Source of the DNA: Candidatus Shapirobacteria bacterium
GTDB taxonomy: Bacteria; Patescibacteriota; Microgenomatia; UBA12405
NCBI GenBank assembly: GCA_030698565.1
Contig: JAUYJS010000008.1
Location: forward strand, 161,275 to 225,274
Reading direction: 5' to 3'
DNA: 64,000 bases
The position numbers and the translations under genes were made by a program. Below are positions 5,735 to 64,000 of the stretch, piece after piece (within the stretch, counting starts at the first letter, position 1; each line of letters opens with the position of its first letter). The notes under the pieces are model-generated. The model was given only the letters and a program-made list of their open reading frames with translations. It had not been told where the DNA came from and made no database searches.

Positions 5735-5752
5735 ATTTTGATGAATTATACA

Positions 5753-31374: not shown

Positions 31375-31466
31375 AATAACTTTTCTGGAATCGGCCGAAA
31401 TACAAGACAGTATTAATATTACACAATATATTTTAATATTTGGTATTTTTGTGTACAATTCTAAAT

Positions 31467-37159: not shown

Positions 37160-37570
37160 CCTAATTACGAATATTAAATTTCTACTTTTGTAGATATTTA
37201 AGCCATCTTCTATAACCTTTTCCTAATTACGAATATTAAATTTCTACTTTTGTAGATGGTAACTCTAGTGCTTATAGTGTTGTAGCCTAATTACGAATAT
37301 TAAATTTCTACTTTTGTAGATATTGTGTAACCAGTCAAATAAGACTTTCCTAATTACGAATATTAAATTTCTACTTTTGTAGATTCTAGGTGTTTAGTGG
37401 TTTGGGTTGCCTAATTACGAATATTAAATTTCTACTTTTGTAGATTACTCGTGGTGCATACCCTGAATTAGACCTAATTACGAATATTAAATTTCTACTT
37501 TTGTAGATACTAATGTAATAAAAAGTATTACCATCCTAATTACGAATATTAAATTTCTACTTTTGTAGAT
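37160..37570 (+). CRISPR. CRISPR array, 7 repeats of 36 bp (CCTAATTACGAATATTAAATTTCTACTTTTGTAGAT), 6 spacers of 25-28 bp
   Basis: Repeats at 37160, 37222, 37286, 37349, 37410, 37473, 37535, all identical; 3' end AATTTCTACTTTTGTAGAT is the canonical Cas12a crRNA handle; AT-rich leader 36966..37159. Confidence 0.95.
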
Positions 37571-43607: not shown

Positions 43608-45326
43608 ATGGTAAATATAAATGAATATGCAAACTTTATTTGGTCGGTAGCTGATACTTTAAGAGGCGATTACAAACAAGCTGACTACGGAAAAGTGATT
43701 TTACCTTTGACTGTTATCAGGAGACTAGATAGTGTTCTTTCAGATACCAAGGAAAATGTATTAAAAAGCTATGAATCCCAAAAAATAACCAATCTTCAAG
43801 AAGCTGATTTAGTACTCAATAAAATTGCCGGATACAAATTCCATAACCATAGTAAATTTGATTTTAGTAAATTGATTTCGGACCCGGATAATATCGTTTC
43901 AAATTTGAGAAATTACATTAACGGATTTTCCGAAAATGCCAGAGATATTTTAGAAAACTTTGAATTCGACAAAGAGATTCATAAACTGGATAAAGCCAAT
44001 CTCCTTTATCAAGTTGTAAAACAATTTCAGGAAATTAACTTACATCCCAGCAAAATAAATAATCATGAAATGGGTTATTTGTTTGAAGAACTGATCAGAA
44101 AGTTTGCTGAAGCATCAAATGAAACCGCCGGAGAACATTTCACACCCAGAGAAGTTATCAAGTTGATGGTCAACATCCTTTTTATTTCTGATAGTAATAT
44201 CCTTCGTGGTGACGGAATTATTAAAACCCTTTATGATCCTGCCTGTGGAACTGGTGGCATGATGTCGGTTGCTGAAGAGTATTTAAAAGAACTCAATCCA
44301 GACGCTAGACTTGAACTATTTGGACAAGAACTTAACCCAGAGTCTTATGCTGTTTGTAAGTCCGACATGTTGATAAAAGTTCAAGACCCGGACCACGTAA
44401 AATTGGGTGATACTTTGAGGAATGATCAGTTAAGGACCGAAAAATTTGATTACATGCTTTCAAATCCTCCGTTCGGAGTTAATTGGAAAAAGGCGGAGAA
44501 AGAAGTTAAGCAAGAATACGAGGATCTAGGATTTGGAGGAAGGTTTGGGGCTGGTCTTCCTAGTATCAGCGATGGATCAATGCTTTTTCTTCAACACATG
44601 GTTTCAAAAATGAAACCCACCAATGGAGGTTCCCGACTAGCGATTGTATTTAATGGCTCTCCACTATTCTCTGGTAGTGCTGGTAGTGGTCCCAGCGAGA
44701 TTAGAAGATGGATTATTGAAAACGATATGCTCGAAGCAATAATCGCTCTTCCGGACCAACTTTTTTATAACACCGGTATTTCTACATACATATGGGTTGT
44801 AACGAACAGAAAATCCATCGAAAGAAAAGGAAAGGTCCAGCTTATAAATGCTGTCTCATCCTATAAGGTGATGAGAAAGAAACTAGGCGATAAAAGAAAT
44901 GAAATAGGAACCGAGGATATTGATAAAATTGTCAGCTTATATGGGGAATTTAGTGATTCAAAATTCTCAAAGATATTTGATAATTCTGATTTTGGATATT
45001 CCCAATTAACAGTCGAAAGACCACTCAAAGACGAAAAAGGAAACATTATTAAAGACACAAAAGGCAAACCAAAAGCCGATCCTAAATTAAGGGACTCCGA
45101 AAATGTTCCATTAAAAGAAGATATTCAAGAATACTTCAAAAGAGAGGTGGTCCCATTTGTTCCAGATGCCTGGATAGATGAATCCAAAACTAAAGTTGGC
45201 TACGAAATCAATTTCACTAAGTACTTTTACGAGTATAAGCCACTTCGATCACTTGAAGAGATAACTAAAGACATTTTGGAATTAGAAAAAGAAAGTGATG
45301 GGTTATTGAAAGAAATTACTAAATAA
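43608..45326 (+). CDS. hsdM: type I restriction-modification system, methyltransferase subunit HsdM
   Basis: N-terminal HsdM_N; motif I DPACGTGGM; motif IV LSNPPFG. Confidence 0.9.
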   Translation: MVNINEYANFIWSVADTLRGDYKQADYGKVILPLTVIRRLDSVLSDTKENVLKSYESQKITNLQEADLVLNKIAGYKFHNHSKFDFSKLISDPDNIVSNLRNYINGFSENARDILENFEFDKEIHKLDKANLLYQVVKQFQEINLHPSKINNHEMGYLFEELIRKFAEASNETAGEHFTPREVIKLMVNILFISDSNILRGDGIIKTLYDPACGTGGMMSVAEEYLKELNPDARLELFGQELNPESYAVCKSDMLIKVQDPDHVKLGDTLRNDQLRTEKFDYMLSNPPFGVNWKKAEKEVKQEYEDLGFGGRFGAGLPSISDGSMLFLQHMVSKMKPTNGGSRLAIVFNGSPLFSGSAGSGPSEIRRWIIENDMLEAIIALPDQLFYNTGISTYIWVVTNRKSIERKGKVQLINAVSSYKVMRKKLGDKRNEIGTEDIDKIVSLYGEFSDSKFSKIFDNSDFGYSQLTVERPLKDEKGNIIKDTKGKPKADPKLRDSENVPLKEDIQEYFKREVVPFVPDAWIDESKTKVGYEINFTKYFYEYKPLRSLEEITKDILELEKESDGLLKEITK

Positions 45327-45329
45327 ATA

Positions 45330-46622
45330 ATGACTTATAAATCAGACACCTCGACTTGGAATACTAAAAAATTGAAGTATGTTACTTGTATCAATTCAGA
45401 GGTGCTAAGAGAAAATAAAGATAAAGAGCAAGAAATAAGTTATATAGACATCAGTTCGGTAAATTCAGACGGTAGAATTAAAAAAATCGAGAAAGTCAAA
45501 TTTGGAGTAGCACCTTCAAGGGCAAGAAGAATCGTTAAGAAAGGGGATGTGATTATATCAACCGTAAGAACTTATTTAAGAGCCATTGCTTCCATTAAAG
45601 AAAACATTGATGATTTAATTGTATCTACTGGTTTTGCTGTATTACGAGCCGGAAATGAAATATCACCAGATTTTCTGAAATACGCTATATTAAATCCAGA
45701 TTTTATCGACAAGATAATGGCTAACTCAAAAGGAGTAAGCTATCCTGCAATTAGTAGTTCTGACTTGGCAAACTTGGCAATTTCGTACCCGTACAAAAAG
45801 GAAACACAAGATTTAATAAGTAGATACTTAAATTATAAAACCTCTCTTATAGACTCCTTAGTTCAAAAAAATGAAAAACTAATTAAACTTTTGGAAGAGA
45901 AAAAAGCAGCAATTATTAGTCAGACCATAACAAAAGGGTTAAATACGGATGTCGAGATGAAAGACAGTGTAGTTGAATGGGTTGGAAAAATACCAAAAGT
46001 GTGGAAAGTGGAGCCAGTTTCTTTAAACTTCAAAGAGAATAAAATCAAGAATAGTAATCTCCAAGAGAAAAATTTACTCTCACTTAGTTACGGAAAAATT
46101 ATAAAGAAAAACATTCTTTCAAATTTCGGTTTATTACCAGAATCGTTCTCAAATTACCAAATAGTTGAAAAAGATTGCATTATATTAAGACTTACAGATC
46201 TTCAAAACGATAAAAGAAGTTTAAGAGTAGGCTACGTACCTGAAAGAGGAATAATTACATCCGCTTATATTGGTCTAACCCCAAAAAGCAATCTAAATTC
46301 CAAATATATTTATTACTTGCTTCACAGTTATGATTTAAAGAAAGTGTTTTATAACTTAGGTTCTGGTGTAAGACAAAGTTTAACTTACTTTGATTTTAAA
46401 AAGCTTCCATTGATTATCCCTACAAGTGAAGAGCAAGAAAAAATTGTGGAGCATGTTGAGGTAGGGATAAGAAAAATTAGTGATTCAATTAACTATATTG
46501 ATAAGCAAATAAAATTATTAGAAGAATATCGCAAAACACTTATCTCAAATGTGGTCACTGGAAAAACTGATGTTAGAGATGAAAAAATTCCAGAAAGTGG
46601 GATAAAATACAACTATGCCTAA
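45330..46622 (+). CDS. hsdS: type I R-M specificity subunit HsdS (two target-recognition domains)
   Basis: 430 aa, follows hsdM by 3 bp; two TRD-like halves separated by the conserved central coiled-coil. Confidence 0.8.
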   Translation: MTYKSDTSTWNTKKLKYVTCINSEVLRENKDKEQEISYIDISSVNSDGRIKKIEKVKFGVAPSRARRIVKKGDVIISTVRTYLRAIASIKENIDDLIVSTGFAVLRAGNEISPDFLKYAILNPDFIDKIMANSKGVSYPAISSSDLANLAISYPYKKETQDLISRYLNYKTSLIDSLVQKNEKLIKLLEEKKAAIISQTITKGLNTDVEMKDSVVEWVGKIPKVWKVEPVSLNFKENKIKNSNLQEKNLLSLSYGKIIKKNILSNFGLLPESFSNYQIVEKDCIILRLTDLQNDKRSLRVGYVPERGIITSAYIGLTPKSNLNSKYIYYLLHSYDLKKVFYNLGSGVRQSLTYFDFKKLPLIIPTSEEQEKIVEHVEVGIRKISDSINYIDKQIKLLEEYRKTLISNVVTGKTDVRDEKIPESGIKYNYA

Positions 46623-49600
46623 TATATTAAATGAAAATACTTTTGAAACTAACATTGTTGAGAAACTAGTTTCAAGTTGTGGTTATATTGAAGGCAATCC
46701 TGTCGATTTCATTCCTGATCTGGCAATCGATACCAATCAACTATTCTCTTTTTTACTCGACTCCCAATCGAACGAAATTGACCAGCTAATCAAGGTACAT
46801 GGGGAAGATGAGTATCAGGACCGACTGATCCAACGGTTAATTAAAGAGTTAGATTTGCGGGGGACTCTTGATTGTTTGCGAAACGGTATTACTGATTATG
46901 GTGTCCATCTTAATCTTGCTTATTTCAAACCGGAATCTAGCCTCAATCAGGAGACCAAAGAAAAATATGATCAAAACATTATCTCCGTTACTCGCCAGGT
47001 CCACTTTAGTGAAAAAGACCCTGATAAATCTGTCGACCTGGTATTGTTTATCAATGGTTTACCTGTCGCTACTGCTGAATTAAAAAACCCATTTACTGGA
47101 CAGAATGTAGAAAATGCTCAGAAACAATATATTTACACCAGAGATGTCCGAGAATCACTTTTTCAATTCAAAAAAAGAGCTCTAGTCCATTTTGCCGTTG
47201 ATCCTAATTTGGTCTATATGACTACTCAACTCAACGGTGAAAATACTAAGTTTTTGCCTTTTAATAAGGGTCTAAATAATGGAGCTGGTAATCCATCAGT
47301 CGAATCCGGTTACCAAACATCATATCTTTGGGAAGAGGTCTGGAGTAAGGATGGCTGGATGGATATTATTGCCAAATATATTCACCTAGAGAAAAAAGAA
47401 ATAAAAACCGAAGGAAAAATAATTACTAAAGAGAAAATAATCTTTCCTCGTTACCACCAGCTTGATGTAGTGAGAAAGTTGGTTAACGATACCAAAAGAA
47501 GTGGAACTGGAAAAAATTACTTAATTGAACATAGTGCCGGAAGTGGAAAGAGCAACTCGATTGCTTGGTTGGCTTATCGTCTTGCAAATTTACATAATGA
47601 TTTAGATCAACCTGTTTTCGATTCAGTTGTCGTAGTTACCGACAGGGTGGTCCTAGACAAACAACTTCAAGATACGATTTATCAGTTTGATCATAAGCAA
47701 GGTGTTGTTCAAAAGATCGACAAAGATTCTGCCCAATTAGCTGATGCATTGAAGAAAGGGATCAAAATCATCATCACTACTGTTCAAAAGTTCCCCTTTG
47801 TTTTGGATCAAATTGACGAGTTGGAAGCCAAAAAGTATGCTGTAATTGTAGACGAAGCCCACGGTTCACAAGGCGGAGAAACTAGTAAACAGATGAAAGA
47901 AGTTTTGACTTTTGGTCTACACGAATCAGAAGAGTCATCGAATTTAGAAGAACCTGAAACGGCCGAAGATGAAATTAGAAAATCAATGGCATCTAGAGGT
48001 AAACAGTCAAATCTTTGTTTTTATGGATTCACCGCTACTCCTAAAGCGAAAACTCTAGAAGTCTTTGGTGAAGTTGGCAAAGACGGCAAACCCAGACCAT
48101 TCCATCTCTATTCAATGAGACAAGCCATTGAGGAAGGTTTCATTCTTGATGTCTTAAAAAGCTACACTACCTACAAAACCTATTTTCGGTTGTCCAAAGA
48201 AATCGAAGAAGATCCGGAAATAAGTAAGGATAAGGCCAATAGAGCCATCGCCCGATTCCTCTCACTACATCCGCATAATTTATCTCAAAAGACTGAAGTA
48301 ATGGTTGAACACTTCCGAAGAGTCACTATGAAAAGAATTGGTGGTAAAGCTAAGGCTATGGTAGTAACTAGTTCACGGATGCATGCAGTTAGGTACTACC
48401 TCGAATTTAATAAGTACCTAAAAGAAAAAAACTACACTGACATTAGAACTCTCGTCGCTTTTTCCGGTACTGTTATCGACAAAGATTCTGGAGCTGAATA
48501 CAAAGAAGTAGAAATGAATGGTTTTAGAGAGAAAGAACTACCAGAAAAATTCAATGCCGACGAATACAAAATACTGTTAGTCGCCGATAAATATCAAACA
48601 GGTTTCGATCAACCCTTACTCCATACCATGTATGTTGATAAAAAATTGTCAGGTGTAGCTGCTGTCCAAACATTATCAAGATTAAATCGAGTTGCTCCCG
48701 GAAAAGAAGATACCTTTGTCTTGGATTTTGTGAACGACCAAGCAACAATTTACGAATCTTTTCAACCTTATTACGAGCTGACTTCTCTTGAAGAAACTGC
48801 TAACCCAAATCATCTTTATGATCTAAAACACCAGTTAGAAGAAACCGGAATTTTCTGGCAATCAGAGGTTGATAGTTTTTCAAAGGTATTCTTTAAGCCT
48901 AAACAAACCCGAGCTGATCAAGCTGAACTTTACAGACTAATTCAACCAGCTATAGAAAGATATATTGCACTTGATGAAACAAAAAAAGAGGAATTTAAAA
49001 AGATGTTGACTGCCTTTATTAGAACCTACGCTTTTCTTTCCCAGATCATGCCATTCACGGATACTCAACTGGAAAAACTTTATGTTTTTGCCCGATTATT
49101 GAGAAATGCTTTACCTAGAAAAAATAATAATAACTTGGAGTTAAATGATGAGATTGCTTTGCAGTATTACAAACTTCAAAAAATTTCAGAGGGATCAGTT
49201 GAGCTATCAAAAGAAGGGGAGGTAAATCTCCCTGGAATAATGGGTGACTCTGGCAATGCTTCCACTGGTGAGGATGAAAAATCCAAACTATCAGAAATAA
49301 TCAAAACATTAAATGACAGGTTCGGAACTGAATTTAGTGAAGCAGACAAACTTTTCTTTGACCAAATTGAAGAAGAGTTGATTGCAGATCAAAAACTCCA
49401 AAAACAAGCATTAAACAACGAGATCGGTAATTTCAAATATGGTTTTAATGAAGTCTTCGTCGATAAAATCATTGACCGGATGGAGCAGAATCAGGAAATC
49501 TTTAACAAGATTATGAATAATCCTGACTTTAAAGCAGTTGTTTCCGATTGGATGCTCAAAAAGGTCTACAAAAAACTTAGTCAAAAAGTATCTATAAAGT

Positions 49601-50070
49601 CTTTGATTAAAGAAGGAGAGGGGCAGAATCTTGAATTTAAATCTTCTCTTAGATGGGACGTTAAGCAAGGTAAAGAAAATAAAGATTTGGAAAAAGTGAT
49701 AATGAAAACTCTCGCCGGATTTATGAACTCCGAAGGTGGACAGCTAATTATTGGAGTAGAGGATAATGGTAATGTTCTGGGCTTGGAAAACGATTATCAA
49801 ACTCTTCAAAACGGAAATAGAGATAAGTTTGAAACCCACATGGTACAACTAATGAAAGCCTTAATGGGTATAGAGTTTGTTCAATATGTCAGGTTCCTGT
49901 TCGACAAAATTGAAGGAAAAGATGTTTGTCTAGTAACTGCTATCAAATCACCAAAACCTGTATATGTGAAGTATCAAGACAAAGAGGAGTTCTTTGCCCG
50001 GACTGGCAATTCCACTAGCCCATTTACTCTAAGTGAAGCACAGGAGTTTATTAAAACACATTGGAATTAA
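46615..50070 (+). CDS. hsdR: type I restriction enzyme HsdR fused to a C-terminal AlbA_2/Schlafen-like putative DNA-binding domain
   Basis: HsdR_N (VDLVLFINGLPVATAELK), DEAD-box helicase (GSGKSNS, VVDEAHGSQ); C-terminal about 150 aa GQNLEFKSSLRWD...LAGFMNSEGGQLIIGVEDNGNVLGLEN matches AlbA_2 (PF04326). Confidence 0.85.
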   Translation: MPNILNENTFETNIVEKLVSSCGYIEGNPVDFIPDLAIDTNQLFSFLLDSQSNEIDQLIKVHGEDEYQDRLIQRLIKELDLRGTLDCLRNGITDYGVHLNLAYFKPESSLNQETKEKYDQNIISVTRQVHFSEKDPDKSVDLVLFINGLPVATAELKNPFTGQNVENAQKQYIYTRDVRESLFQFKKRALVHFAVDPNLVYMTTQLNGENTKFLPFNKGLNNGAGNPSVESGYQTSYLWEEVWSKDGWMDIIAKYIHLEKKEIKTEGKIITKEKIIFPRYHQLDVVRKLVNDTKRSGTGKNYLIEHSAGSGKSNSIAWLAYRLANLHNDLDQPVFDSVVVVTDRVVLDKQLQDTIYQFDHKQGVVQKIDKDSAQLADALKKGIKIIITTVQKFPFVLDQIDELEAKKYAVIVDEAHGSQGGETSKQMKEVLTFGLHESEESSNLEEPETAEDEIRKSMASRGKQSNLCFYGFTATPKAKTLEVFGEVGKDGKPRPFHLYSMRQAIEEGFILDVLKSYTTYKTYFRLSKEIEEDPEISKDKANRAIARFLSLHPHNLSQKTEVMVEHFRRVTMKRIGGKAKAMVVTSSRMHAVRYYLEFNKYLKEKNYTDIRTLVAFSGTVIDKDSGAEYKEVEMNGFREKELPEKFNADEYKILLVADKYQTGFDQPLLHTMYVDKKLSGVAAVQTLSRLNRVAPGKEDTFVLDFVNDQATIYESFQPYYELTSLEETANPNHLYDLKHQLEETGIFWQSEVDSFSKVFFKPKQTRADQAELYRLIQPAIERYIALDETKKEEFKKMLTAFIRTYAFLSQIMPFTDTQLEKLYVFARLLRNALPRKNNNNLELNDEIALQYYKLQKISEGSVELSKEGEVNLPGIMGDSGNASTGEDEKSKLSEIIKTLNDRFGTEFSEADKLFFDQIEEELIADQKLQKQALNNEIGNFKYGFNEVFVDKIIDRMEQNQEIFNKIMNNPDFKAVVSDWMLKKVYKKLSQKVSIKSLIKEGEGQNLEFKSSLRWDVKQGKENKDLEKVIMKTLAGFMNSEGGQLIIGVEDNGNVLGLENDYQTLQNGNRDKFETHMVQLMKALMGIEFVQYVRFLFDKIEGKDVCLVTAIKSPKPVYVKYQDKEEFFARTGNSTSPFTLSEAQEFIKTHWN

Positions 50071-50772
50071 ATGGATAATGATAAAGCCCCAAAATCAGGT
50101 GTAGTATATATTCTCATCAATGATGCCATGCCTGGCTATATCAAAATCGGCATAACCCAAACCTCCGTTGAACAAAGAGTAAAAGAACTTTCACGGACAT
50201 CAGCGGTCCCCATTCCCTTTGAATGTTACTTTGCAGTTCGTGTGGCTGATGTCCGACGAGTCGAAGCTGCTATCCATAATGCTTTTGGAGATCACCGAAG
50301 AAATCCTAAAAGAGAATTTTTTCAGCTCGCACCAGAACGAGTTGTCCCTATTTTAAAATTATTAGCGATTGAAGAAGTACATATTTCAGTAGATGCTGGT
50401 GTCGAAAATAAAGCAGACGCCCAAGCCTTAGAGCTGGCCCATAAAAGGAGAGCAGCCTTTAATTTCGAAATGGCCCAAATTCCAATAGAGTCTGAACTGA
50501 AATTCATTCGTAATGAAGAAATAACTTGTTCAGTTGCACCTGATCAAAAACATGTGATATTTAATGGCGAAACGATGTCTGTTTCTTCTGCTGCCCAAAA
50601 AGCCTTAAATAGTAAATGGCAGGTTCAAGGTCCGGCTTACTGGACCTATGAAGGAGAAATTCTTGACGAAAGACGAATAAGAATAGAGGCTGGAATTCCC
50701 ACTGACAAAGAAATCGAAGAAGCGGGGGATTATTGGATGAATCTACAAGATGAAATTGCAAGGGGTAAATAA
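50071..50772 (+). CDS. T5orf172 (GIY-YIG-related) plus DUF4357-type protein
   Basis: GVVYILINDAMPGYIKIGIT...RVKELS...PFECYFAV = T5orf172/MUG113 domain; ATG directly abuts the hsdR stop; locally higher GC. Confidence 0.6.
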   Translation: MDNDKAPKSGVVYILINDAMPGYIKIGITQTSVEQRVKELSRTSAVPIPFECYFAVRVADVRRVEAAIHNAFGDHRRNPKREFFQLAPERVVPILKLLAIEEVHISVDAGVENKADAQALELAHKRRAAFNFEMAQIPIESELKFIRNEEITCSVAPDQKHVIFNGETMSVSSAAQKALNSKWQVQGPAYWTYEGEILDERRIRIEAGIPTDKEIEEAGDYWMNLQDEIARGK

Positions 50773-54649: not shown

Positions 54650-55561
54650 ATGAAAATATCAGAAAAAGATATTAAATTGCTTTGGGGTAAGTCGGGTAAC
54701 CGATGTTCGATTTGTCATGTCGAACTATCTTCTGACAAAAAAACATCCACAAAAGACTATCCTCTCGGCGAACAAGCCCACATAGTTGCAGAAGAATCTA
54801 GTGGTCCAAGAGGCGAAAGCCAACTTACTTCGTTGGAAAGAAACTCGTATTCAAATCTGGTACTTTTATGTCCAACACACCACACAGCCATTGACAAAGA
54901 TACAGACTATTATTCGATAGAAAAACTCCAATTTATAAAAAGTAATAACGAACAGTGGGTTAGAGAAAAGTTATCAAGTATTATAGACCTTCACAATGAG
55001 GCAAAAGACATGGTTTATGCTGACTTGATAGATAAAATTGTAAAATTTATCGATCTTGAACACTGGGATAGCTGGTCAAGTCATCTGTTATCCTCTTTGC
55101 ATCGTATGGACCAAACTCTTAGAAACTCGCTTCTGGACTTGCAGGTTCAAGTATCGAAAACTTTATGGTCTGGAAAATATCCAGACCTTGAGAAAGCGAT
55201 GAAGCTTTTATCAAAATATTTTGGTGATGTTTTGGGGACTTATCTGGAAAACGCAGAATTAAATAGCGAAGGAGACTATAAGGGAGTGAAATTTTATAAG
55301 AATTACTATGGAAAGGCACAATCTGTTGTCAGTGAAAAAGTTGCTGAATACGACAAGTGGGAAGAAGATCTGTCAACCTCAATGCACGAGGCTACAAAAA
55401 GTTTAAATTTATTTGCAGATAAGGTCAGAGAGCACTTTAATCCATTTTTTTACGTCACTGACGGTAAATTTATGATAGTTGAAGGACCATATGAAGACTT
55501 AGAATTTAAATATTACACACCTGAATTTACAAATTTAGAGAAACAAACAAAAACATCTTAA
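54650..55561 (+). CDS. HNH endonuclease domain protein with about 200-aa uncharacterised C-terminal domain
   Basis: CSICHVEL...GEQAHIVAEE...NLVLLCPTHHTAID = HNH motif. Confidence 0.6.
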   Translation: MKISEKDIKLLWGKSGNRCSICHVELSSDKKTSTKDYPLGEQAHIVAEESSGPRGESQLTSLERNSYSNLVLLCPTHHTAIDKDTDYYSIEKLQFIKSNNEQWVREKLSSIIDLHNEAKDMVYADLIDKIVKFIDLEHWDSWSSHLLSSLHRMDQTLRNSLLDLQVQVSKTLWSGKYPDLEKAMKLLSKYFGDVLGTYLENAELNSEGDYKGVKFYKNYYGKAQSVVSEKVAEYDKWEEDLSTSMHEATKSLNLFADKVREHFNPFFYVTDGKFMIVEGPYEDLEFKYYTPEFTNLEKQTKTS

Positions 55562-55601
55562 TTATTTTTATCAAAATCAAAAATTATATATTTGTGAGTA
55601 A

Positions 55602-56270
55602 TTGCCACTAATGGAAAAAATAATAGAATGGATTCAGACAAATTACGGCTGGATTTTCAACATAATTATACAAAGCTTTATTGCCTATCATATTTATTTT
55701 TTGTCAAAAAAAATATCAACAGAAGCTAGGCTTGAACATAGGGAAAATATTAAAGAAATAGCAGAAACGATCCTGTCAGAAATTCATAAAAAGGGTTTAA
55801 CTTCAAAAGTTTACTTAGTTAACATTGTTAGATACTTTAAAGATTATCCCTCTAATAAAGAAAACATATTTACCGGGTATTCTCACATTAGGGCTGAGAT
55901 CAAATCCACTAGATATGATGGAATTGAATTCTTTGCTGAGTCACCAAAAGAGGTTTATAAAAAATCTAATGGGCAACTTTCTTTTACTGGGAAAAAAGAG
56001 AATAAATTATTTAATGTATACCCGGTAGGAATTGTTCCTTACGACTGGATAGAATACCTAGATTCAGAAGGTGACGAATATGGATATGTACCACTAATCT
56101 ATTGTTATTTTAAAGGAAGGGTCTACTGGAAGTTCTGGAAAAAACTCTTGTTTTTTGGCTACCCATACAAGAAAATAATTTACTACAAACTAAATGAGAT
56201 TTACAATGAAAGAAACGATCCTCGTGATATGAAATATTCTTATGTATATGACAAGATCTATAAAAAGTGA
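55602..56270 (+). CDS. hypothetical membrane-anchored protein
   Basis: 222 aa; N-terminal TM YGWIFNIIIQSFIAYHIYFL; Y/W-rich. Confidence 0.4.
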   Translation: MPLMEKIIEWIQTNYGWIFNIIIQSFIAYHIYFLSKKISTEARLEHRENIKEIAETILSEIHKKGLTSKVYLVNIVRYFKDYPSNKENIFTGYSHIRAEIKSTRYDGIEFFAESPKEVYKKSNGQLSFTGKKENKLFNVYPVGIVPYDWIEYLDSEGDEYGYVPLIYCYFKGRVYWKFWKKLLFFGYPYKKIIYYKLNEIYNERNDPRDMKYSYVYDKIYKK

Positions 56271-56335
56271 AACTTTATTGCTCTAAAAGTACATTGTATT
56301 CCTTATTGTTTCCATCTCGTGGAGCATTCTAAAAC

Positions 56336-56839
56336 CTACGGCATAAACATATACCCATATTCATCACTCGGTCCAAAGTAATGCGATTTGTTCAGTAAAG
56401 TATCCGCTAATTCTTGTGCTGTCATATTCTCCGAAATGCGATAACTCGCCACAATATCAATTGAGCCATTGGTCCCAACTGACAATGCTCCCGGATTTCC
56501 CTGGGTCGTATCCTTGGTGTGTTCTAAAGCATATTTAAAGGCTTTTTCACTTCTGATAAAACCGTAGTATTTCAGGTTGCTAATTACCGCTTCCAATGTC
56601 GAACCTTTACCGGGGCGAAAATCTACTGTTTGGCTTTGCTTTTGTCTTTCTAGATCACTTTGAGTAAATCTTAGTTTTTCGACAAAATAGTCTTCTACCT
56701 TTTTAGACGACTGCCAAGTTTTCCCCGGTGCTTTAAAATCTTCTTCCGAAATTTTATTTACTTTCTTCTGCCAGATTACATATCCTAAACCGACCACTAT
56801 TAAGGCAACAAAAATCGGTAACAATTTTTTCATTTTCAT
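56336..56839 (-). CDS. membrane-anchored protein with YceG/MltG-like N-terminal domain (partial-length)
   Basis: Signal/TM LLPIFVALIVVGLGYVIW; FRPGKGSTLEAVISNLKYYGFIRSEKAF resembles YceG (IPEGST...I...L...GVI); half the length of full MltG. Confidence 0.35.
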   Translation of the reverse strand: MKMKKLLPIFVALIVVGLGYVIWQKKVNKISEEDFKAPGKTWQSSKKVEDYFVEKLRFTQSDLERQKQSQTVDFRPGKGSTLEAVISNLKYYGFIRSEKAFKYALEHTKDTTQGNPGALSVGTNGSIDIVASYRISENMTAQELADTLLNKSHYFGPSDEYGYMFMP

Positions 56840-56956
56840 ATCTTATTCTACTTCATTAGTTTTTCACTATGGTATCCCATTCCGCATAGAAGGAACCTTA
56901 AATCGTGCAAGTTAGCCGGAAATAGTTCCATTTGGCGAGCATGTTATCCTTTTTTA

Positions 56957-57622
56957 ATGTCTCGAGTTTTTTTAATCATCTCTCTAATCATTAATGCCAT
57001 TTTAGGTTTTTTATTTCTTCGTCCCCGTCCAGTTATCCCAAATCTCTATCAAGTCGATCGCGTCATCGATGGCGACACTTTTATTGTCAAAGAAGGAGAC
57101 TTGTCTGCCGGCAGGCAGATTCGTCTTATGAGTGTCAACTCTCCCGAAGTCGGTCTTTGCGGCAGTGCAGAAGCCACAGCTAAATTAAAAGAATTAATTG
57201 ATGGTAAAAAAGTTCGATTAGTCGGTGATCTCAATGATCATTATGGTCGTCTCTTGGCTCTGGTTTATGTTGACGATCAATTAATTAACAAAGAAATAAT
57301 TCTTTCCGGCTGGGCCCGTTTCACTTCAACTGCATCTTCAGAATCCGAAAATTTAAAATCCGCTTTTCAAAAGATAAAAACCGAAAAATTGGGAGTTTTT
57401 AGTTCCAAGTGTTATCAAACCACCAACCCTCAAAATCCAAAATGTAACATCAAAGGAAATGTCAAAGAAGGTAAAAAAATTTATTTTTTCCCCGGTTGTG
57501 GCAATTACAGCAATGTCGCCCTCGAACTAGATCAAGGCGATCAATGGTTCTGTTCCGAATCCGCTGCCACCTCCGCCGGTTTTACCAAAAGCGCCAATTG
57601 TTATGCGAAAGTGTATTACTAA
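56957..57622 (+). CDS. thermonuclease (staphylococcal nuclease, SNase-like) with N-terminal anchor and Cys-rich C-terminal extension
   Basis: VIDGDTFIV...RLMSVNSPE...YGRLLALVYVDD...NKEIILSGWA = SNase core; contains the CTGCCGGCAGGCAG palindrome in-frame (DLSAGRQ). Confidence 0.7.
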   Translation: MSRVFLIISLIINAILGFLFLRPRPVIPNLYQVDRVIDGDTFIVKEGDLSAGRQIRLMSVNSPEVGLCGSAEATAKLKELIDGKKVRLVGDLNDHYGRLLALVYVDDQLINKEIILSGWARFTSTASSESENLKSAFQKIKTEKLGVFSSKCYQTTNPQNPKCNIKGNVKEGKKIYFFPGCGNYSNVALELDQGDQWFCSESAATSAGFTKSANCYAKVYY

Positions 57623-57733
57623 CCTATGAAAACATATGAAGCTAAAATATAGACAAATAGTTAAATAGTACGGACAACAAGGGAATAATAGCAAGTTATT
57701 GAAAATATTTAAAAAGGGTGTATAGTTCTTATT

Positions 57734-59395
57734 ATGAACGAAGAATTACTAACAATTAGCCAAGTAGCTTTGATGTTTAATATCCATCCAGACACCCTTA
57801 GAAATTGGGAAAAAGACAACAAACTTGTACCTTTACGAGTTGGGCCAAGACAAGATCGAAGATATCGAAAACAAGATATTCAAACCATACTTGATAAATT
57901 GGGAAACAAATTAACGCTTCCACAACTAGAACAATTTTTATGGAGAAGTGCAGATATTTTAAGAGACAAAATTGATAGTTCTGATTATAAAAAATATATT
58001 TTTGGTCTTCTTTTTTACAAACGGATTAGTGATGTTTGGGATGAGGAATACAAAAAGATATTTGATGAGTTTGGCGACAAATCTTTGGCTCTTGCTGATT
58101 ACAATCATCGATTCCAAGTACCAGCCGATTGTGGCTGGTCAGTTATTACCGAAACATCAGAAAATATTGGTCGCAAACTAAATGAGATTTTTGAAAAGAC
58201 AACTAATGTCAACAGTCCCAAACTAGACAAAATTTTTGATGATTTAGACTTTGCCAACAAAGATCGTTTCCCAAATGAAACAATTCAAAAATTAATTAAT
58301 CATTTTTCTCAATATAATTTTAATAGCAATTACATTAGTTCAGATTTACTCGGTGATGCTTACGAATATTTAATCAAGGAGTTTGCCGCTGACGCTGGTA
58401 AAAAAGGTGGCCAATTTTATTCACCTCGTGAAGTTGAAAGAATAATTATAGGAATTGTTAAACCTCATCAAAAAGATCATATATGCGATCCAACCGTAGG
58501 ATCAGGAGGATTTTTACTTGAAGCATACAATTACCTAAAAGATAAAGCCGGAGAACAAATCGCTCGCTCACTATATCTATATGGCCAAGAAATAAATATC
58601 AGTACCTTTGCCATTGCTCGGATAAATATGTTTTTGCACGGTCTTGATAGTGCTGACATTCGTCGAGGCGATACTCTTGCCAATCCACAGTTTTTAAACA
58701 ACATGGGAGGATTACAAACCTTCGACATTGTGGTGGCAAATCCACCCTACTCGATAAAAGATTGGGAATTTGAAACATTTAGGAATGATAAATACGGTCG
58801 AATTGATGATTATGAATTGCCACCACAAAAAAATGCCGACTTTGCATTTCTGCTTCATATTGTTAAAACACTAAATGCCAATGGTCGTGCTGGTGTGGTT
58901 CTGCCACACGGAGTTTTATTTCGTGGCGGTGCTGAGGGTAGAATTCGCGAACAATTGATAAAACATGGACTAGTTGAAGCTATTATTTCACTCCCTGCCA
59001 AATTATTTTATGGCACAGGTATTCCAGTTGCGATTTGGATATTAAATAAAAATAAGTCAGAAGAGAAAAAAGACAAAATATTAATTATCGATGCCTCAAA
59101 AGAATATTTAGAGGGTAAAAATCAAAACAGTATCCGAAAACAAGATATTGAAAAAGTCATTAATACTTTTGATCAATATCAAGATATCGAAAAATATGCC
59201 CGAGTTATCGATATAAAAGAAATAAAAGAAAACGATTTTAATCTAAATGTCACTCGTTACATCGACTCAAACGAAGAAAAAGAAGTTATTGATGTCAAGC
59301 AAGTGTGGAATGAATTGAAAATATTAGAAACAGAAAGGAAAGATATTGATAAAAAAGTTAATAGTTTTATAACGGAGTTAGGCTATGACAAATGA
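57734..59395 (+). CDS. hsdM: type I R-M methyltransferase HsdM with N-terminal MerR/excisionase-type HTH
   Basis: N-terminal LLTISQVALMFNIHPDTLRNWEKDNKLVP (HTH_17-like); motif I DPTVGSGGF; motif IV VVANPPYS. Confidence 0.85.
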   Translation: MNEELLTISQVALMFNIHPDTLRNWEKDNKLVPLRVGPRQDRRYRKQDIQTILDKLGNKLTLPQLEQFLWRSADILRDKIDSSDYKKYIFGLLFYKRISDVWDEEYKKIFDEFGDKSLALADYNHRFQVPADCGWSVITETSENIGRKLNEIFEKTTNVNSPKLDKIFDDLDFANKDRFPNETIQKLINHFSQYNFNSNYISSDLLGDAYEYLIKEFAADAGKKGGQFYSPREVERIIIGIVKPHQKDHICDPTVGSGGFLLEAYNYLKDKAGEQIARSLYLYGQEINISTFAIARINMFLHGLDSADIRRGDTLANPQFLNNMGGLQTFDIVVANPPYSIKDWEFETFRNDKYGRIDDYELPPQKNADFAFLLHIVKTLNANGRAGVVLPHGVLFRGGAEGRIREQLIKHGLVEAIISLPAKLFYGTGIPVAIWILNKNKSEEKKDKILIIDASKEYLEGKNQNSIRKQDIEKVINTFDQYQDIEKYARVIDIKEIKENDFNLNVTRYIDSNEEKEVIDVKQVWNELKILETERKDIDKKVNSFITELGYDK

Positions 59396-60209
59396 ACCAA
59401 TAACTATATTTGAAGAGTCAAAAAGAGTTAATCAGCATAATTCAGAATATTGGTCTGCTAGAGCACTGGGAAATATCCTTGGATATTCAGAATATAGACA
59501 CTTTTTACCTGTAATTGAAAAAGCAAAGGAATCTTGTATTAACTCAAAACAACCGGTGAATGAACATTTCGAGGAATACCTCGAGATGATCAAACTGGGT
59601 CATGGTGCCGAGAGACCTATAAGTGATATTAAATTGTCCAGATATGCTTGTTATTTAATAATGCAAAATGCTGATCCGTCAAAAGAAGTGGTTGCACTTG
59701 GACAGACATATTTTGCAATTCAGACTAGAAGACAGGAGATACGGGATCAAACGATTGAAGACAATAAAAGAATGTTCCTAAGAGAGGAAGTAACCGCTCA
59801 CAACAAACATTTAGCAGAAGCAGCGAGTATGGCAGGTGTCAGAAATTATGGCATTTTTACAAACTACGGATACATGGGTTTGTATGGGGGTAGGTCAATG
59901 GTAGAAATACATCAAAAAAAAGGATTAAAGAAAAGTCAAAAAATTTTAGACTTTATGGGAAGTGAAGAGTTGGCTGCAAATTTATTTAGAGCTACGCAGA
60001 CAGATGCAAAATTAAGACGAGATCAAGTAAAGAATGAAGCTGTGGCCAATCATACCCATCAAGAAGTCGGTCGAGAAGTTAGGGACACAATACGGAAGTT
60101 AGGTGGCACCATGCCCGAAAATCTCCCAACTCCCGATGCAATCACCCAAGCAAAAAAGAGAATTAAAAACATAGAAAAAGTAATGTTGAAAAACAATGTC
60201 TCAAAATAA
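59385..60209 (+). CDS. RhuM/DinD-family protein embedded in R-M operon
   Basis: 274 aa between hsdM and hsdS, the characteristic position and size of Virulence_RhuM/DinD proteins; N-terminal ...SARALGNILGYSEYRHF... Confidence 0.5.
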   Translation: MTNEPITIFEESKRVNQHNSEYWSARALGNILGYSEYRHFLPVIEKAKESCINSKQPVNEHFEEYLEMIKLGHGAERPISDIKLSRYACYLIMQNADPSKEVVALGQTYFAIQTRRQEIRDQTIEDNKRMFLREEVTAHNKHLAEAASMAGVRNYGIFTNYGYMGLYGGRSMVEIHQKKGLKKSQKILDFMGSEELAANLFRATQTDAKLRRDQVKNEAVANHTHQEVGREVRDTIRKLGGTMPENLPTPDAITQAKKRIKNIEKVMLKNNVSK

Positions 60210-61386
60210 TCAGAAAACATCAGTAAAATGGCCAATCAAAACAATGTCTGAAATTGTTGAATTTGCCTATGGTCAAAATCTTCCGAAAGAAAAACGCATC
60301 ACGGGTAATTGCGAAGTTTATGGTTCTAATGGGGTAGTTGGTTCACACAATCAATTTTTTGTTGAAGGTCCAGGAATTATTATTGGCAGAAAAGGGAGTA
60401 TTGGTAAGGTTATTTATACAGATAAAAATTTTTGGCCAATCGACACTACATACTATGTAAAACCGATTGATGAACTAGATTTAAAGTGGTTATATTATTG
60501 CCTCCAAATGTTAAAACTTGACAAGTTGAATTCTGCAACTGGTGTACCAGGTCTAAATAGAAATGATGTGTATTCGAAAAAAATATTGTTTCCTCCAATA
60601 AACACTCAACAAAAAATCGCCACAATTTTATCCACCATCGACGAGGCAATTCAAAAAACCGATCAAATAATCGAAAAAACAGAAAAATTAAAAAATGGGT
60701 TGATGAACGAAATGTTGACCAAAGGCATTGGTCATACAAAATTCAAAAAAACTAAATTGGGAGAAATTCCTGAGGAATGGAATGTAGTTCAACTATCTGA
60801 ATTAAGTTACATCACCAAACTTGCTGGTTACGAGTTTACTAAATATTTTAATAGTTACAAAGACCAAGGCGAGATGATAATAATTCGAGGTCTCAATTTG
60901 AAAAATAGAGAACTTGATTTGAGTAATATCAAGACAATTCCGAAATCGGTTGCTGATAATTTACAGAGGTCGAAACTAAGTTCCGGAGACTTAGTTTTCT
61001 CATACGTTGGAACGATTGGTCCAGTGGCGGTTATTACCGAAAACAACAAATATCACTTAGGGCCAAACGTCTGTAAAATTTCCCCAAATAAATACGTTAG
61101 TTCAAATTACCTTTATCAATATTTTTTAAGTGAGTTGATCAAAAAAGAAATTAATAAAAAAATTAGTGTTACGGCACAACCAAGTTTATCAATGGAAAAA
61201 ATAAGAGTCTTCGAAATAATTCTGCCATCAAATATGGACGAGCAAAATAAAATCTGCGAGATATTGATGAATTTTGATAAAAAAAATAGAAATTATGTCG
61301 CGACAAAAGAGAAATTGTTAGTCATTAAGAGTGGACTAATGAATGATATTTTTAGCCAAAAGGTGGAGGTAAATAATGCTACCTAA
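60196..61386 (+). CDS. hsdS: type I R-M specificity subunit HsdS
   Basis: 396 aa, two TRD halves with conserved central/terminal coiled-coil regions. Confidence 0.75.
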   Translation: MSQNNQKTSVKWPIKTMSEIVEFAYGQNLPKEKRITGNCEVYGSNGVVGSHNQFFVEGPGIIIGRKGSIGKVIYTDKNFWPIDTTYYVKPIDELDLKWLYYCLQMLKLDKLNSATGVPGLNRNDVYSKKILFPPINTQQKIATILSTIDEAIQKTDQIIEKTEKLKNGLMNEMLTKGIGHTKFKKTKLGEIPEEWNVVQLSELSYITKLAGYEFTKYFNSYKDQGEMIIIRGLNLKNRELDLSNIKTIPKSVADNLQRSKLSSGDLVFSYVGTIGPVAVITENNKYHLGPNVCKISPNKYVSSNYLYQYFLSELIKKEINKKISVTAQPSLSMEKIRVFEIILPSNMDEQNKICEILMNFDKKNRNYVATKEKLLVIKSGLMNDIFSQKVEVNNAT

Positions 61387-62431
61387 CGGCTGGACATTTC
61401 CCAAACCAAATCCTTCTGTGATATTACAGAACAGGGAGGCTGGAATGATTTATAGCTTTGATTTTGGAAGTGGAAAAGGAAAGTTTATTAGTACAGTGCT
61501 GGATGGTTCAGATCCATATGACATTTCTGTAAAAACCTCACCTAAAATTGAAATTAGGTTTACATATATTTTTGATAAAAAGGAAGTGGTTGGTATACAG
61601 TTTTCAAAAGCCGAAAAAGATGGTTCTCTTTCTGTGATACATTTATCCACTTTAGATTGGAATGGAATACTTAAAATTTTATATTTATTTTCTAATTTAG
61701 ACTTTTCATCACTTGCAAATAATAGTCTAATTATTGATGGTGGTTTAGTTCATGATCCAGTTGCGTTAAATAAATTTTTAATGACTGTAGCTACTGACCC
61801 AGTTGGTCAAGAAAAGATGAAAGAAGTTTTAAAAAATTTTGGAGCCATAAAAAATGGAGATATTAATGAAATTGTTGAAAGGAAAAATGCCATTGAACTA
61901 TTTGAAAAATTACTTAATAGTGCTGATGAGTTTCAAAAATATAAAACTACCAATGTTATTGGAAAGAACGAAGAGGTGTGGCAGAAGTTCTTTCAATCAA
62001 ATTCTTGGATATTAGGATCTGATTTTGTTGAAATATTAGACGAAAGGGTAATTGATGAAGAAAGTATCACTGATTTACCTGTTAAAGACTACGATGGTTT
62101 TGTAAATATTATAGAGTTAAAATTGCCTACTGAAGATTTTTGGACTCAAGAGATGATTCCTGTTTCAAATCTTACTAAGGCAATGGTGCAATGTATGCGC
62201 TATGTGACAGAGATGGAAAGAAGGATGAATGATTATAAAAAAATTGGCGAATTGGGTGCCAATATACTTAAGCCAAGAATTACTTTAATTTTTGGCAGAT
62301 CAAATGATTGGATGGATAAACACAGAGAACAATTAAAAATTCTAAACTCTAGTTTTCACAATATTTCTATTTTGACATATGACCATGTATTACAAAGAGC
62401 AAAAAAAATTACTGAACAAACAAAACATTAA
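61376..62431 (+). CDS. Shedu-like DUF4263 (PD-(D/E)xK nuclease) protein inserted between hsdS and hsdR
   Basis: EEVWQKFFQSNSWILGSDFVEIL (DUF4263 opening signature E..WQ.FF..N.WI.G) followed by DYDGFVNIIELKLP (D...E.K nuclease motif) and TYDHVLQRAKK ending. Confidence 0.45.
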   Translation: MLPNGWTFPKPNPSVILQNREAGMIYSFDFGSGKGKFISTVLDGSDPYDISVKTSPKIEIRFTYIFDKKEVVGIQFSKAEKDGSLSVIHLSTLDWNGILKILYLFSNLDFSSLANNSLIIDGGLVHDPVALNKFLMTVATDPVGQEKMKEVLKNFGAIKNGDINEIVERKNAIELFEKLLNSADEFQKYKTTNVIGKNEEVWQKFFQSNSWILGSDFVEILDERVIDEESITDLPVKDYDGFVNIIELKLPTEDFWTQEMIPVSNLTKAMVQCMRYVTEMERRMNDYKKIGELGANILKPRITLIFGRSNDWMDKHREQLKILNSSFHNISILTYDHVLQRAKKITEQTKH

Positions 62432-62453
62432 TTACATATAAATTATAAAAATT

Positions 62454-63329
62454 ATGCCAAATAAAAAATTTCTAGAGGAATATCCATTATACAGAAGGTT
62501 TGACTTCGAAATAGAAAAAATATGGTCGACTAACTACACCACTGGAGGTACTAGAATTTCACAATTACCTAAACCTGCCATAAACCTGGAATGTCCGATT
62601 TGTAAGTCGATACAAACTTTCAATATGGTTAATGAATATTTTGACGATAGCGACCTCAAAAAAAAGTACAATTCTCCGGCTTTTGTATCATTTCAGTTAA
62701 ATTATTTTTGTTCATGTTGTAAAGCTTTTCACTATGAATTCTTCGTTGATTTTGGTGTAACGAGGAAAATTGATAAAGACAAAAATGAAATTTGGACTAA
62801 TGGTTGGGTCAGAAAAATTGGTCAAAAACCAGAGTGGTCAATTGAAATTGATAGCCAAGTACAAAAATTTATAAACGAGGAAAACATTTTGCTTTTTAAA
62901 AAAGGATTAATTTGCGAATCACAGTCGTATGGAATTGGGGCATATTCGTATTATCGTAGAATTGTAGAGTCGATCATCGACGACCTACTAAAAGAAATTG
63001 AAGAACTAATTCCAGATGGAGATGAAAAAAAGGAATATTTGATTGCTTTTGAAAAAACTAAGAAAGAAATCATTGCTGCAAACAAAATTTCACTAGTAAA
63101 AGACCTAATTCCTAAAGTTTTGTTAATTGATGATGTCAATCCGTTAGCTGTTTTATATAGTGCAGTTAGTGATGGTTTACACAATAGGACAGACGAAGAG
63201 TGTTTAAATATAGCTGAAACAATTAGAGAGTGTTTATCGTTTTTAATTATACAAATCTACTCTAGTAAAAATAGTAAAAAACAATTTACAGATAGAATAA
63301 AAACATTATTAAAGAAGAAAACAAAATAA
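62454..63329 (+). CDS. hypothetical Zn-ribbon protein inserted between hsdS and hsdR
   Basis: 291 aa; CPICKS...CSCCKAFH four-Cys cluster near N-terminus; otherwise no recognised domain. Confidence 0.4.
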   Translation: MPNKKFLEEYPLYRRFDFEIEKIWSTNYTTGGTRISQLPKPAINLECPICKSIQTFNMVNEYFDDSDLKKKYNSPAFVSFQLNYFCSCCKAFHYEFFVDFGVTRKIDKDKNEIWTNGWVRKIGQKPEWSIEIDSQVQKFINEENILLFKKGLICESQSYGIGAYSYYRRIVESIIDDLLKEIEELIPDGDEKKEYLIAFEKTKKEIIAANKISLVKDLIPKVLLIDDVNPLAVLYSAVSDGLHNRTDEECLNIAETIRECLSFLIIQIYSSKNSKKQFTDRIKTLLKKKTK

Positions 63330-63331
63330 CT

Positions 63332-64000
63332 ATGAAATTTAATGAACAATATACAGTCGAGAATCATATAATCAAATATATTTCTCAAACCTTAGATTTT
63401 GATTATATAAAACCTGAGGAGTTTGCTAAGTTGCGAGAATTTGAAAATGAATATTTGGTAATTCCTGAATTGTTTGAAGCGATAAAACGAATCAACAATT
63501 TAAATGACGATGGTAAAGTCCAAAGTGTTATTCGCGAAATAAAAAAGATTGACACAAACGAAGAATTTTTAAATCTACTTCGCAATGGGGTTAATATAAA
63601 AGACCCAAAAACAGGTAAAAATAGAGATTATTTGGTCGTCGATTATGACAATATTGATAATAACCATTTTGTCGTCACCAACCAATTTTATTTTGAAGGG
63701 AATTTGGAAAATATTCGTCCTGATATCATGGTTTTTATAAATGGTATTCCTGTAGTTGATATAGAAGCCAAAAGCCCAACCGCCTCGGAAATTGTTGATT
63801 ATACAAAGGCTATCGGTCAGTTAAAAAGATACGAAAGAAATGCTATCAAATTATTTTGGCCTAATTGTTTTAATATCGCTACTGATGGATTAAAAACTGT
63901 TTACGGTGCCACTTATGCTCCAACTCAATATTTTTTGCAGTGGAAAGATGAATTCGAAAATAAAGACGATGAGGAGCTAGAGATCACCTTAAAAGCATTA
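63332..64000 (+). CDS. hsdR: type I restriction enzyme HsdR (5' partial, runs off window)
   Basis: ATG 63332; MKFNEQYTVENHIIKY...PDIMVFINGIPVVDIEAKSP = HsdR_N nuclease motif. Confidence 0.75.
   Translation, partial: MKFNEQYTVENHIIKYISQTLDFDYIKPEEFAKLREFENEYLVIPELFEAIKRINNLNDDGKVQSVIREIKKIDTNEEFLNLLRNGVNIKDPKTGKNRDYLVVDYDNIDNNHFVVTNQFYFEGNLENIRPDIMVFINGIPVVDIEAKSPTASEIVDYTKAIGQLKRYERNAIKLFWPNCFNIATDGLKTVYGATYAPTQYFLQWKDEFENKDDEELEITLKAL

Follow-up and report, generated by a model that had tools for sequence, protein, structure and literature searches.

The DNA analysed here, referred to as the window, is a 64,000-nucleotide stretch of a Candidatus Shapirobacteria contig from the candidate phyla radiation (JAUYJS010000008.1, positions 161,275 to 225,274) that ends in a type I restriction-modification (R-M) operon, the second such operon of the window. 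From 57734 to the window end it comprises six open reading frames (ORFs), all on the plus strand, which encode in this order HsdM with a fused helix-turn-helix (HTH) domain, a DinD/Bro-N protein, HsdS, the Shedu nuclease SduA, a 291-amino acid (aa) protein here called ZnR, and HsdR. Adjacent genes overlap by 11–14 nucleotides (nt) or are spaced by 2–22 nt. A 30-kb assembly with the same sequence (L081) was used to read the operon beyond the window end and revealed a seventh gene, RhuM, overlapping the end of hsdR. The features of the operon within the window are:

57699..57726, plus strand: candidate operon promoter TTGAAA-16-TATAGT, 8 nt 5' of the hsdM start (consensus match 10/12)
57734..59395, plus strand: hsdM, 553-aa methyltransferase subunit of type I, its N-terminus fused to a MerR/excisionase-type HTH
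57746..57898, plus strand: HTH domain of HsdM, residues 5–55 (MerR_1 9.8e-8, HTH_17 5e-7)
59385..60209, plus strand: DinD-like gene, 274 aa, with an N-terminal Bro-N domain, between hsdM and hsdS (slot A)
60196..61386, plus strand: hsdS, specificity subunit, 396 aa
61376..62431, plus strand: sduA, Shedu nuclease, 351 aa, between hsdS and hsdR (slot B)
61964..62389, plus strand: C-terminal PD-(D/E)xK nuclease domain of SduA, residues 197–338 (extent of the Pfam match)
62454..63329, plus strand: ZnR, 291-aa protein with a zinc ribbon and a HEPN-like domain (slot B)
62592..62720, plus strand: Cys4 zinc ribbon of ZnR, C47-x2-C50 ... C86-x2-C89, modelled within a five-stranded beta domain (residues ~43–125)
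62853..63326, plus strand: HEPN-like helical domain of ZnR, residues 134–291 (domain model and Foldseek)
63332..64000, plus strand: hsdR, first 223 codons, cut by the window end (HSDR_N 1.1e-35, TIGR00348 1.4e-35)

The core of the operon is that of a type I system in each of its subunits. HsdM contains the methylase domains N6_Mtase (PF02384, 1.4e-110) and HsdM_N (PF12161, 1.3e-22) according to Pfam, reaches 278.5 bits against the NCBIfam model TIGR00497 (cutoff 242.75) and matches MTase_I of PADLOC at 5.7e-139. HsdS shows two target-recognition stretches (Methylase_S, PF01420, 1.7e-36) and a full-length match to the PADLOC Specificity_I model (2.3e-71). The complete HsdR, 969 aa and encoded at L081:10879-13788, combines the nuclease with a superfamily 2 helicase motor (domains HSDR_N, ResIII, SWI2_SNF2 and T1R_D3-like). 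In enzymes of this kind HsdM2S methylates and R2M2S restricts.

TTGAAA-16-TATAGT was the top-scoring plus-strand consensus match in a promoter scan. Since promoter and terminator scans gave no excess of matches over the shuffled expectation in this region, it is regarded as a candidate only. The terminator scan found no terminator-like site on the plus strand between hsdS and hsdR, which lends weak support to co-transcription of the predicted operon. The HTH domain on HsdM may serve its autoregulation. A type III Mod methylase encoded next to another ZnR gene (L023:9103-10998) carries a fused domain of the same type, which suggests a common autoregulatory device.

An earlier sequence-only reading of this region had proposed the gene order given above, with an HTH on hsdM and with tight packing on one strand, and this holds for every gene except the second, which it had taken for RhuM. 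That gene product has no match to Virulence_RhuM (PF13310) at E≤0.1. It is instead a DinD protein (NCBIfam NF008573, 1.2e-110; its 369 bits exceed the cutoff of 242) that contains a Bro-N domain (Pfam, 1.2e-7), and it further matches PADLOC PDC-S13 (6.1e-112) and phrog_8036 (3.4e-98). The Virulence_RhuM (PF13310) protein is the product of the seventh gene, which encodes 264 aa and lies outside the window directly after hsdR (L081:13772-14566). The DinD protein also aligns with the first 267 of the 717 positions of a PADLOC Specificity_I model (4.9e-87), so that DinD-HsdS fusion proteins exist; this hints at a functional tie between DinD-like domains and type I specificity subunits.

The proposal that the 351-aa protein is a Shedu SduA was confirmed. 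Pfam recognises SduA_C (PF14082) at 1.4e-18 (68 bits against a cutoff of 27), and 19 PADLOC SduA models match, the best at 9e-55 and a full-length model at 3.2e-26. The motif EEVWQKFFQSNSWILG begins at residue 199, and the residues E199/E200, D240, E247-L-K249 and Q272 correspond to motifs I–IV (E, D, ExK, Q) of Bacillus cereus Shedu; they were located by inspection against the published motif list and not by residue-level alignment to the B. cereus protein. The NCBI record gives a protein of 328 aa, which is 23 codons shorter (61376-61444). Because the hsdS-overlapping start is conserved in relatives of 75–85% identity, themselves 351–352 aa long, the 351-aa start predicted here is probably the correct one. 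From what is known of the family, we infer that SduA is an ordinary autonomous, single-gene Shedu PD-(D/E)xK nuclease.

Four sister operons were found via the nearest relatives of ZnR (L084) and of SduA (L087, L088 and L089). Their HsdM and HsdR proteins are 80–87% and 70–89% identical to those of the window, respectively, and their HsdS proteins only 26–47%. The HTH-HsdM fusion is common to all five operons. The arrangements in the four sisters are:

L084: HTH-HsdM, DinD, HsdS, ZnR, HsdR (969 aa); ZnR 77% identical, abutting hsdS; no SduA
L087: HTH-HsdM, 107-aa protein, HsdS, SduA, HsdR, YgjP; SduA 82% identical, abutting hsdR; no ZnR
L088: HTH-HsdM, 157-aa protein, HsdS, SduA, 359-aa protein, HsdR; HsdR 89% identical; no ZnR
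L089: HTH-HsdM, HsdS, SduA, HsdR, YgjP; SduA 75% identical, abutting hsdR; no ZnR

All five belong to one operon lineage, whose three cargo slots are filled combinatorially with independent accessory defence genes. Slot A holds DinD, the 107-aa gene or the 157-aa gene, or is empty. Slot B holds SduA together with ZnR (in the window), ZnR only, SduA only, or SduA with the 359-aa gene. Slot C, 3' of hsdR, holds RhuM in the present operon (beyond the window end) and DUF3800 or YgjP-like genes elsewhere. The type I operon does serve as a scaffold for additional defence genes, as the sequence-only reading had claimed. The 359-aa protein (L088:8104-9183) lies in the exact position of ZnR, has only a sub-threshold SIR2_2 match and is a candidate cargo gene in its own right; as a relative of ZnR it was ruled out (hhalign probability 0.1%).

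The sequence of ZnR recurs with 100% identity as a hypothetical protein in a metagenome-assembled genome of Candidatus Shapirobacteria, and ZnR has no match in Pfam, NCBIfam or PADLOC. In PHROGs it belongs to phrog_25239 (3.1e-43; function label unknown). The earlier description of the 291-aa protein as an unannotated protein with a four-Cys ribbon is correct. None of the four Cys residues (C47, C50, C86 and C89) varies among 39 sequences of 41–81% identity, which share ~35 invariant positions in all; among the others are Q54/T55, K121/G123/Q124, E155/S156/Q157, R168/R169/E172, N229/P230 and S239/G241/H243. The N-terminal peptide MPNKKFLEEYPLYRKF is conserved as well. Library scans of the 39 family members gave nothing consistent, with no DUF4145 or HEPN Pfam match at E≤10 among the 25 most frequent of the 65 matched families.

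The family is very large. In a 90%-identity database 405 homologues were found at E≤1e-3, none with a Pfam domain or an informative name, and an exhaustive profile search returned at least 3,362 clusters at 50% identity, 1,014 of them below 1e-30. Relatives occur in 352 GTDB species of bacteria and archaea, including Patescibacteria, Bacteroidota, Gammaproteobacteria, Alphaproteobacteria, Planctomycetota, Chloroflexota, Cyanobacteria, Leptospira, Bathyarchaeia and Asgard archaea. With two records in the plasmid collection (Leptospira) and one in the phage collection, ZnR is not typical of plasmid or phage genes. The phage record is the temperate Rhizobium phage vB_RleA_TRX32-1 (L090, MW023914.1), induced from a lysogen, which carries a homologue at 4941-5810. 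All other genes in the 10.8 kb examined are on the other strand. The homologue lies between the gene for the major capsid protein and those that lead up to the connector (portal) genes, a layout typical of a moron.

The genomic context was counted at 80 loci containing a ZnR relative, one per species. In 10 of these ZnR occupies the hsdS-hsdR interval of a type I operon, with spacings of −20 to +6 nt, and in about five it stands beside type III mod/res or other N6_N4 methylase genes, in the arrangements Mod-ZnR-Res, Mod-ZnR-x-Res, Res-ZnR-Mod, ZnR-x-HTH-Mod-Res and ZnR-MTase (methyltransferase). The chance of a random gene lying inside such an R-M operon is ~0.1%, a figure that we estimated and did not compute. 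In type I operons, slot B sometimes also holds Hypoth_Ymh (a HEPN family) or AbiJ_NTD4 proteins beside ZnR. The 64 loci without an R-M neighbour show no recurrent partner gene. The immediate neighbours there are mostly housekeeping genes and include three resolvases and two integrases; about 10 of the 103 neighbour proteins match PADLOC defence models (SoFic, MzaA, AriB, PDC-S57, PDC-S04, PDC-S24, Argonaute-associated HEPN, TIR and bSEFIR). At 45 of the 80 loci ZnR has no close same-strand neighbour, and the median upstream gap over all 80 is 113 nt. Being mostly solitary and free of a recurrent partner, yet recurrently placed at R genes and present in phage and plasmid copies, ZnR is self-contained and horizontally mobile, and it strongly prefers the position just 5' of the R gene of ATP-dependent R-M systems.

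The earlier label 'otherwise unknown' can be narrowed by the predicted fold of the protein and by a weak link to RAZR/DUF4145 proteins. The AlphaFold2 model of full-length ZnR (predicted local distance difference test, pLDDT, 89.9) shows a short N-terminal helix, the five-stranded beta domain (residues 43–125) and then six helices (134–290), the last of which is 44 residues long. The C-terminal domain was re-modelled alone (pLDDT 94.5) and compared with the Protein Data Bank (PDB) using Foldseek. The top match was 2q00 (probability 1.00, E 0.047, TM-score 0.48/0.60), and the only other matches of comparable TM-score were the sacsin HEPN domain (3o10; 0.45/0.52) and the HepT toxin (6m6w; 0.40/0.46); the three highest TM-scores of this search all belong to HEPN structures. 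The invariant H243 lies just before the last helix (247–290). According to Anantharaman et al., 2q00 represents HEPN-T/PaREP1, a family in which the His is kept and the Arg is absent, and some accepted HEPN families likewise lack the Arg of Rx4-6H (PMC3710099). Homology of the C-terminal domain of ZnR to HEPN domains is thus moderately supported.

RAZR (ring-activated zinc-finger RNase, PD-T7-4) consists of a Cys4 zinc ribbon and a DUF4145/HEPN RNase. Assembly around phage proteins that form rings activates it to cleave ssRNA, and its mode of action is abortive infection (PMC13017515). A resemblance of ZnR to DUF4145 proteins was first seen by eye and then tested with hhalign: both knuckles of the zinc ribbon align with those of RAZR-like proteins (E 2.6e-4, probability 42%). 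An in-house hidden Markov model of 120 RAZR-like proteins gave the same alignment from the zinc ribbon to the 'RR' helix; its E-values were calculated for a database of 266 sequences and by themselves carry no evidential weight. Four of the five ZnR members tested match phrog_1305 (6e-5 to 2.7e-3) over residues ~39–181, which comprise the zinc ribbon, the linker and the first HEPN helices, and RAZR-like/DUF4145 proteins match the same family over their full length (1e-23 to 1e-32). The sequence link between ZnR and RAZR through phrog_1305 would accordingly be transitive and weak. Direct membership of ZnR in DUF4145 was ruled out: PF13643 is absent from the families listed, the RAZR chain 9y9c is not matched and the C-terminal domains do not align.

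RAZR-like zinc-ribbon-DUF4145 proteins were also observed ~1.5–6 kb from solitary ZnR genes in two unrelated genomes (L058:1989-2666, Pseudopedobacter; L012:6834-7421 on the minus strand, Oricola), so both designs can co-reside. The alignment of 31 homologues of the L058 protein matches the RAZR chain 9y9c at 1.7e-23.

Taking together the observed gene content, modularity, size and distribution of the ZnR family and its recurrent placement 5' of R genes, we put at roughly 55% the probability of the following explanation: a single co-transcribed Patescibacteria type I operon offers three cargo slots, SduA acts in it as an autonomous Shedu system, and ZnR is a separate module of zinc ribbon and HEPN-like domain, very distantly related to RAZR. 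If ZnR works as RAZR does, its zinc-ribbon domain would detect a cue of infection and switch on the HEPN-like domain, which in turn would cut or bind RNA, so that ZnR might act as a second line of defence once restriction fails or is evaded. RNase or abortive-infection activity of ZnR, and any coupling to HsdR, are likewise putative. Because the Arg of the R...H dyad is missing, an active site of ZnR would have to be non-canonical; His243 is invariant, and the protein has another invariant polar cluster (E155/S156/Q157, R168/R169/E172 and N229). The many solitary copies imply that ZnR can work alone, and for the embedded ones, given how closely they are coupled to R genes, a guard role like that of PrrC is conceivable. 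A role in defence, as the sequence-only reading had considered, is plausible.

Several results weigh against this explanation. The E-values of the domain search are weak (best 0.047), the TM-score of the top match is only 0.48/0.60, and helical bundles are prone to spurious matches. Searches of the PDB and BFVD with the full-length model gave nothing below E 0.01, with PAS/START-like noise arising from the beta domain. The ZnR profile matched neither RAZR 9y9c nor any HEPN chain among the PDB sequences at E≤10 and returned chance hits only; hhalign of the C-terminal domains of ZnR and RAZR-like proteins reached a probability of only 0.5%, and PADLOC contains no model that matches ZnR. No Arg is conserved 4–8 residues before H243, position −8 being H or Y in the 39 sequences, and in the absence of the catalytic Arg of RAZR and HEPN proteins the C-terminal domain may not be an RNase. 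Finally, since ~80% of the family is solitary, with many members beside housekeeping genes, a putative defence role is based on enrichment of context.

SduA and ZnR might instead form a two-gene system of the Shedu type that was inserted jointly at the hsdS-hsdR position and in which ZnR is a sensor or regulator of the nuclease. Such a pairing was implicit in the sequence-only reading; the two genes are adjacent on the same strand, 22 nt apart, and two-component Shedu variants such as KELShedu exist (PMC12577705). The sister operons separate the two genes, however: L084 has ZnR only, L087 and L089 have SduA only, in line with a nuclease that has no obligate partner, and L088 has the unrelated 359-aa protein in the place of ZnR. 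In addition, no SduA was found in the ~8-kb flanks of ZnR at the 80 loci by single-sequence phmmer, which a divergent SduA could escape. The pair was therefore rejected, and we regard the two-gene system as largely refuted and very improbable. It is also rather unlikely, in our view, that ZnR serves ATP-dependent restriction enzymes as an accessory or regulatory subunit, for example in their assembly, in restriction alleviation or as a guard like PrrC, instead of being an autonomous defence protein. Within R-M contexts of types I and III, ZnR nearly always lies directly 5' of hsdR or res with gaps of 1–4 nt or overlaps, which suggests translational coupling of the two genes, and PrrC/EcoprrI provides the precedent of a HEPN nuclease that a type I enzyme keeps latent (PMC3710099). 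Against this stand the 64 loci without an adjoining R-M gene, the 45 loci without a close same-strand neighbour and the lone phage copy. Because ZnR is mostly solitary, an obligate R-M subunit is disfavoured; the guard idea still fits the embedded subset.

A catalytically dead protein that binds nucleic acid or protein, for instance a transcription factor or an antitoxin-like adaptor, would account for the missing Arg of Rx4-6H and, if the likeness to HEPN merely reflected a generic helical bundle, for the weak fold E-values. In PHROGs phrog_1305 is labelled 'DNA binding protein', and HEPN domains without the motif may be binding modules (PMC3710099). We nevertheless consider this explanation doubtful: the ~35 invariant positions include the polar and charged residues E155, S156, Q157, R168, R169, E172, N229 and H243, a cluster more typical of an enzyme or of a very specific binding site, and the best TM-scores are, as stated, all to HEPN structures. 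A more far-reaching form of the explanation with a separate ZnR module seems to us equally doubtful. Here ZnR would found a sister family to RAZR, very large and previously unrecognised, in which a zinc-ribbon sensor is joined to a HEPN-derived domain whose active site was invented anew (His243 with the cluster E155/S156/Q157 and R168/R169/E172); solitary copies would sense phage proteins directly, and embedded copies would be latent guards of R subunits. An embedded ZnR would be translationally coupled to the R subunit and held latent by it; phage anti-restriction proteins that disable type I or III restriction would release ZnR, which would then cut RNA.

According to library scans the window is a dense defence island, which outside the second R-M operon has the following features:

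31440-37570: type V-A CRISPR-Cas locus, Cas12a of 1246 aa (PADLOC 9e-299)
43608-50772: first type I R-M operon, with HsdM of 572 aa, HsdS of 430 aa and HsdR of 1151 aa
50855-54540: complete Gabija system (GajA, PADLOC 4.7e-220; GajB, 2e-100)
54650-57622: genes between Gabija and the second R-M operon, four ORFs including HNH_2 and SNase proteins

Small cas-like ORFs follow Cas12a at 35135-36687, and the CRISPR array (37152-37570) has at least seven repeats and ends in AATTTCTACTTTTGTAGAT, the canonical 3' end of Cas12a repeats. HsdR of the first type I operon carries a C-terminal Schlafen/AlbA_2 domain (residues 1002–1137, 3.5e-18), and the next gene after this operon is T5orf172/MUG113 (PDC-S57). 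Between Gabija and the second R-M operon lie a 303-aa HNH_2 protein that is PDC-M68A-like (8e-31), a 222-aa protein without a match in any library searched, a 167-aa YceG-like ORF on the minus strand, and a 221-aa SNase-domain protein.

The use of R-M operons as scaffolds is an established pattern in which Shedu, DinD, RhuM and HEPN genes take part; HEPN, RhuM and PrrC genes within R-M operons have been described (PMC3710099), and DinD/PDC-S13 and RhuM in R-M loci are already known candidates. New here are a very large, unmodelled family with a RAZR-like architecture and a predicted non-canonical site, and the clear combinatorial use of the cargo slots. The five near-identical Patescibacteria operons constitute a clean natural experiment for R-M operons as exchangeable racks of defence genes. 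Their slots could be mined for new ones, and candidates already seen include the 359-aa, 107-aa and 157-aa unknowns as well as 228/256-aa proteins. The ZnR family, whose thousands of members are spread over bacteria, archaea and a few phages, lacks a model in Pfam, NCBIfam and PADLOC and is apparently a deep branch of the zinc-ribbon-HEPN design, which was characterised only in 2026 with RAZR. If active, it would widen the catalytic repertoire of HEPN domains and provide annotation pipelines with a common defence gene that is now invisible to them.

In comparison with known systems, nothing material sets the SduA of the window apart. Among 5,499 Shedu genes 602 lie inside R-M systems of types I–IV (Gu et al., 2023; bioRxiv 10.1101/2023.08.10.552793), and the present protein is, as in the published cases, a bona fide SduA with PD-(D/E)xK motifs in a type I system; it belongs to a Patescibacteria clade that habitually occupies the slot between hsdS and hsdR. 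The embedding of defence genes at this position is thus known, as had been said, and its description as under-explored is an overstatement for Shedu. With HEPN-T/PaREP1 (PDB 2Q00, from Sulfolobus), the best structural match of its C-terminal domain, ZnR shares the loss of the Arg and the retention of the His. HEPN-T/PaREP1 differs in being archaeal, in lacking a zinc ribbon and in occurring in other operons (with MNT or PaREP genes), and its sequence showed no similarity to that of ZnR. The arrangement of PrrC, RloC and other rlo genes resembles that of the present operon in that a HEPN-type gene lies between hsdM/hsdS and hsdR, often accompanied by RhuM-like genes (PMC3710099), one of which is present here too. 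Whereas PrrC and RloC combine an ABC-type ATPase at the N-terminus with the canonical Rx4-6H motif, ZnR has neither and is mostly found outside R-M operons; its N-terminus is the zinc-ribbon beta domain, and no ATPase domain was found with Pfam, NCBIfam or PADLOC.

Compared with RAZR, ZnR is ~70 residues longer and has a larger, five-stranded beta domain, the N-terminal peptide and an extra helical insert. The catalytic R146 of RAZR, eight residues before H154 (R-x7-H), has no conserved counterpart in ZnR, and for lack of this Arg ZnR is not a member of RAZR/DUF4145 as now defined. On the other hand, both are single-gene proteins with an N-terminal Cys4 ribbon, a conserved linker and a C-terminal helical domain, of the HEPN type in RAZR and predicted to be HEPN-like in ZnR, with an invariant His, both are widespread across phyla, and DUF4145 proteins are also found in R-M systems or fused to them. 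With moderate confidence, we therefore place ZnR as a deep sister of the zinc-ribbon-HEPN (RAZR/DUF4145) design.

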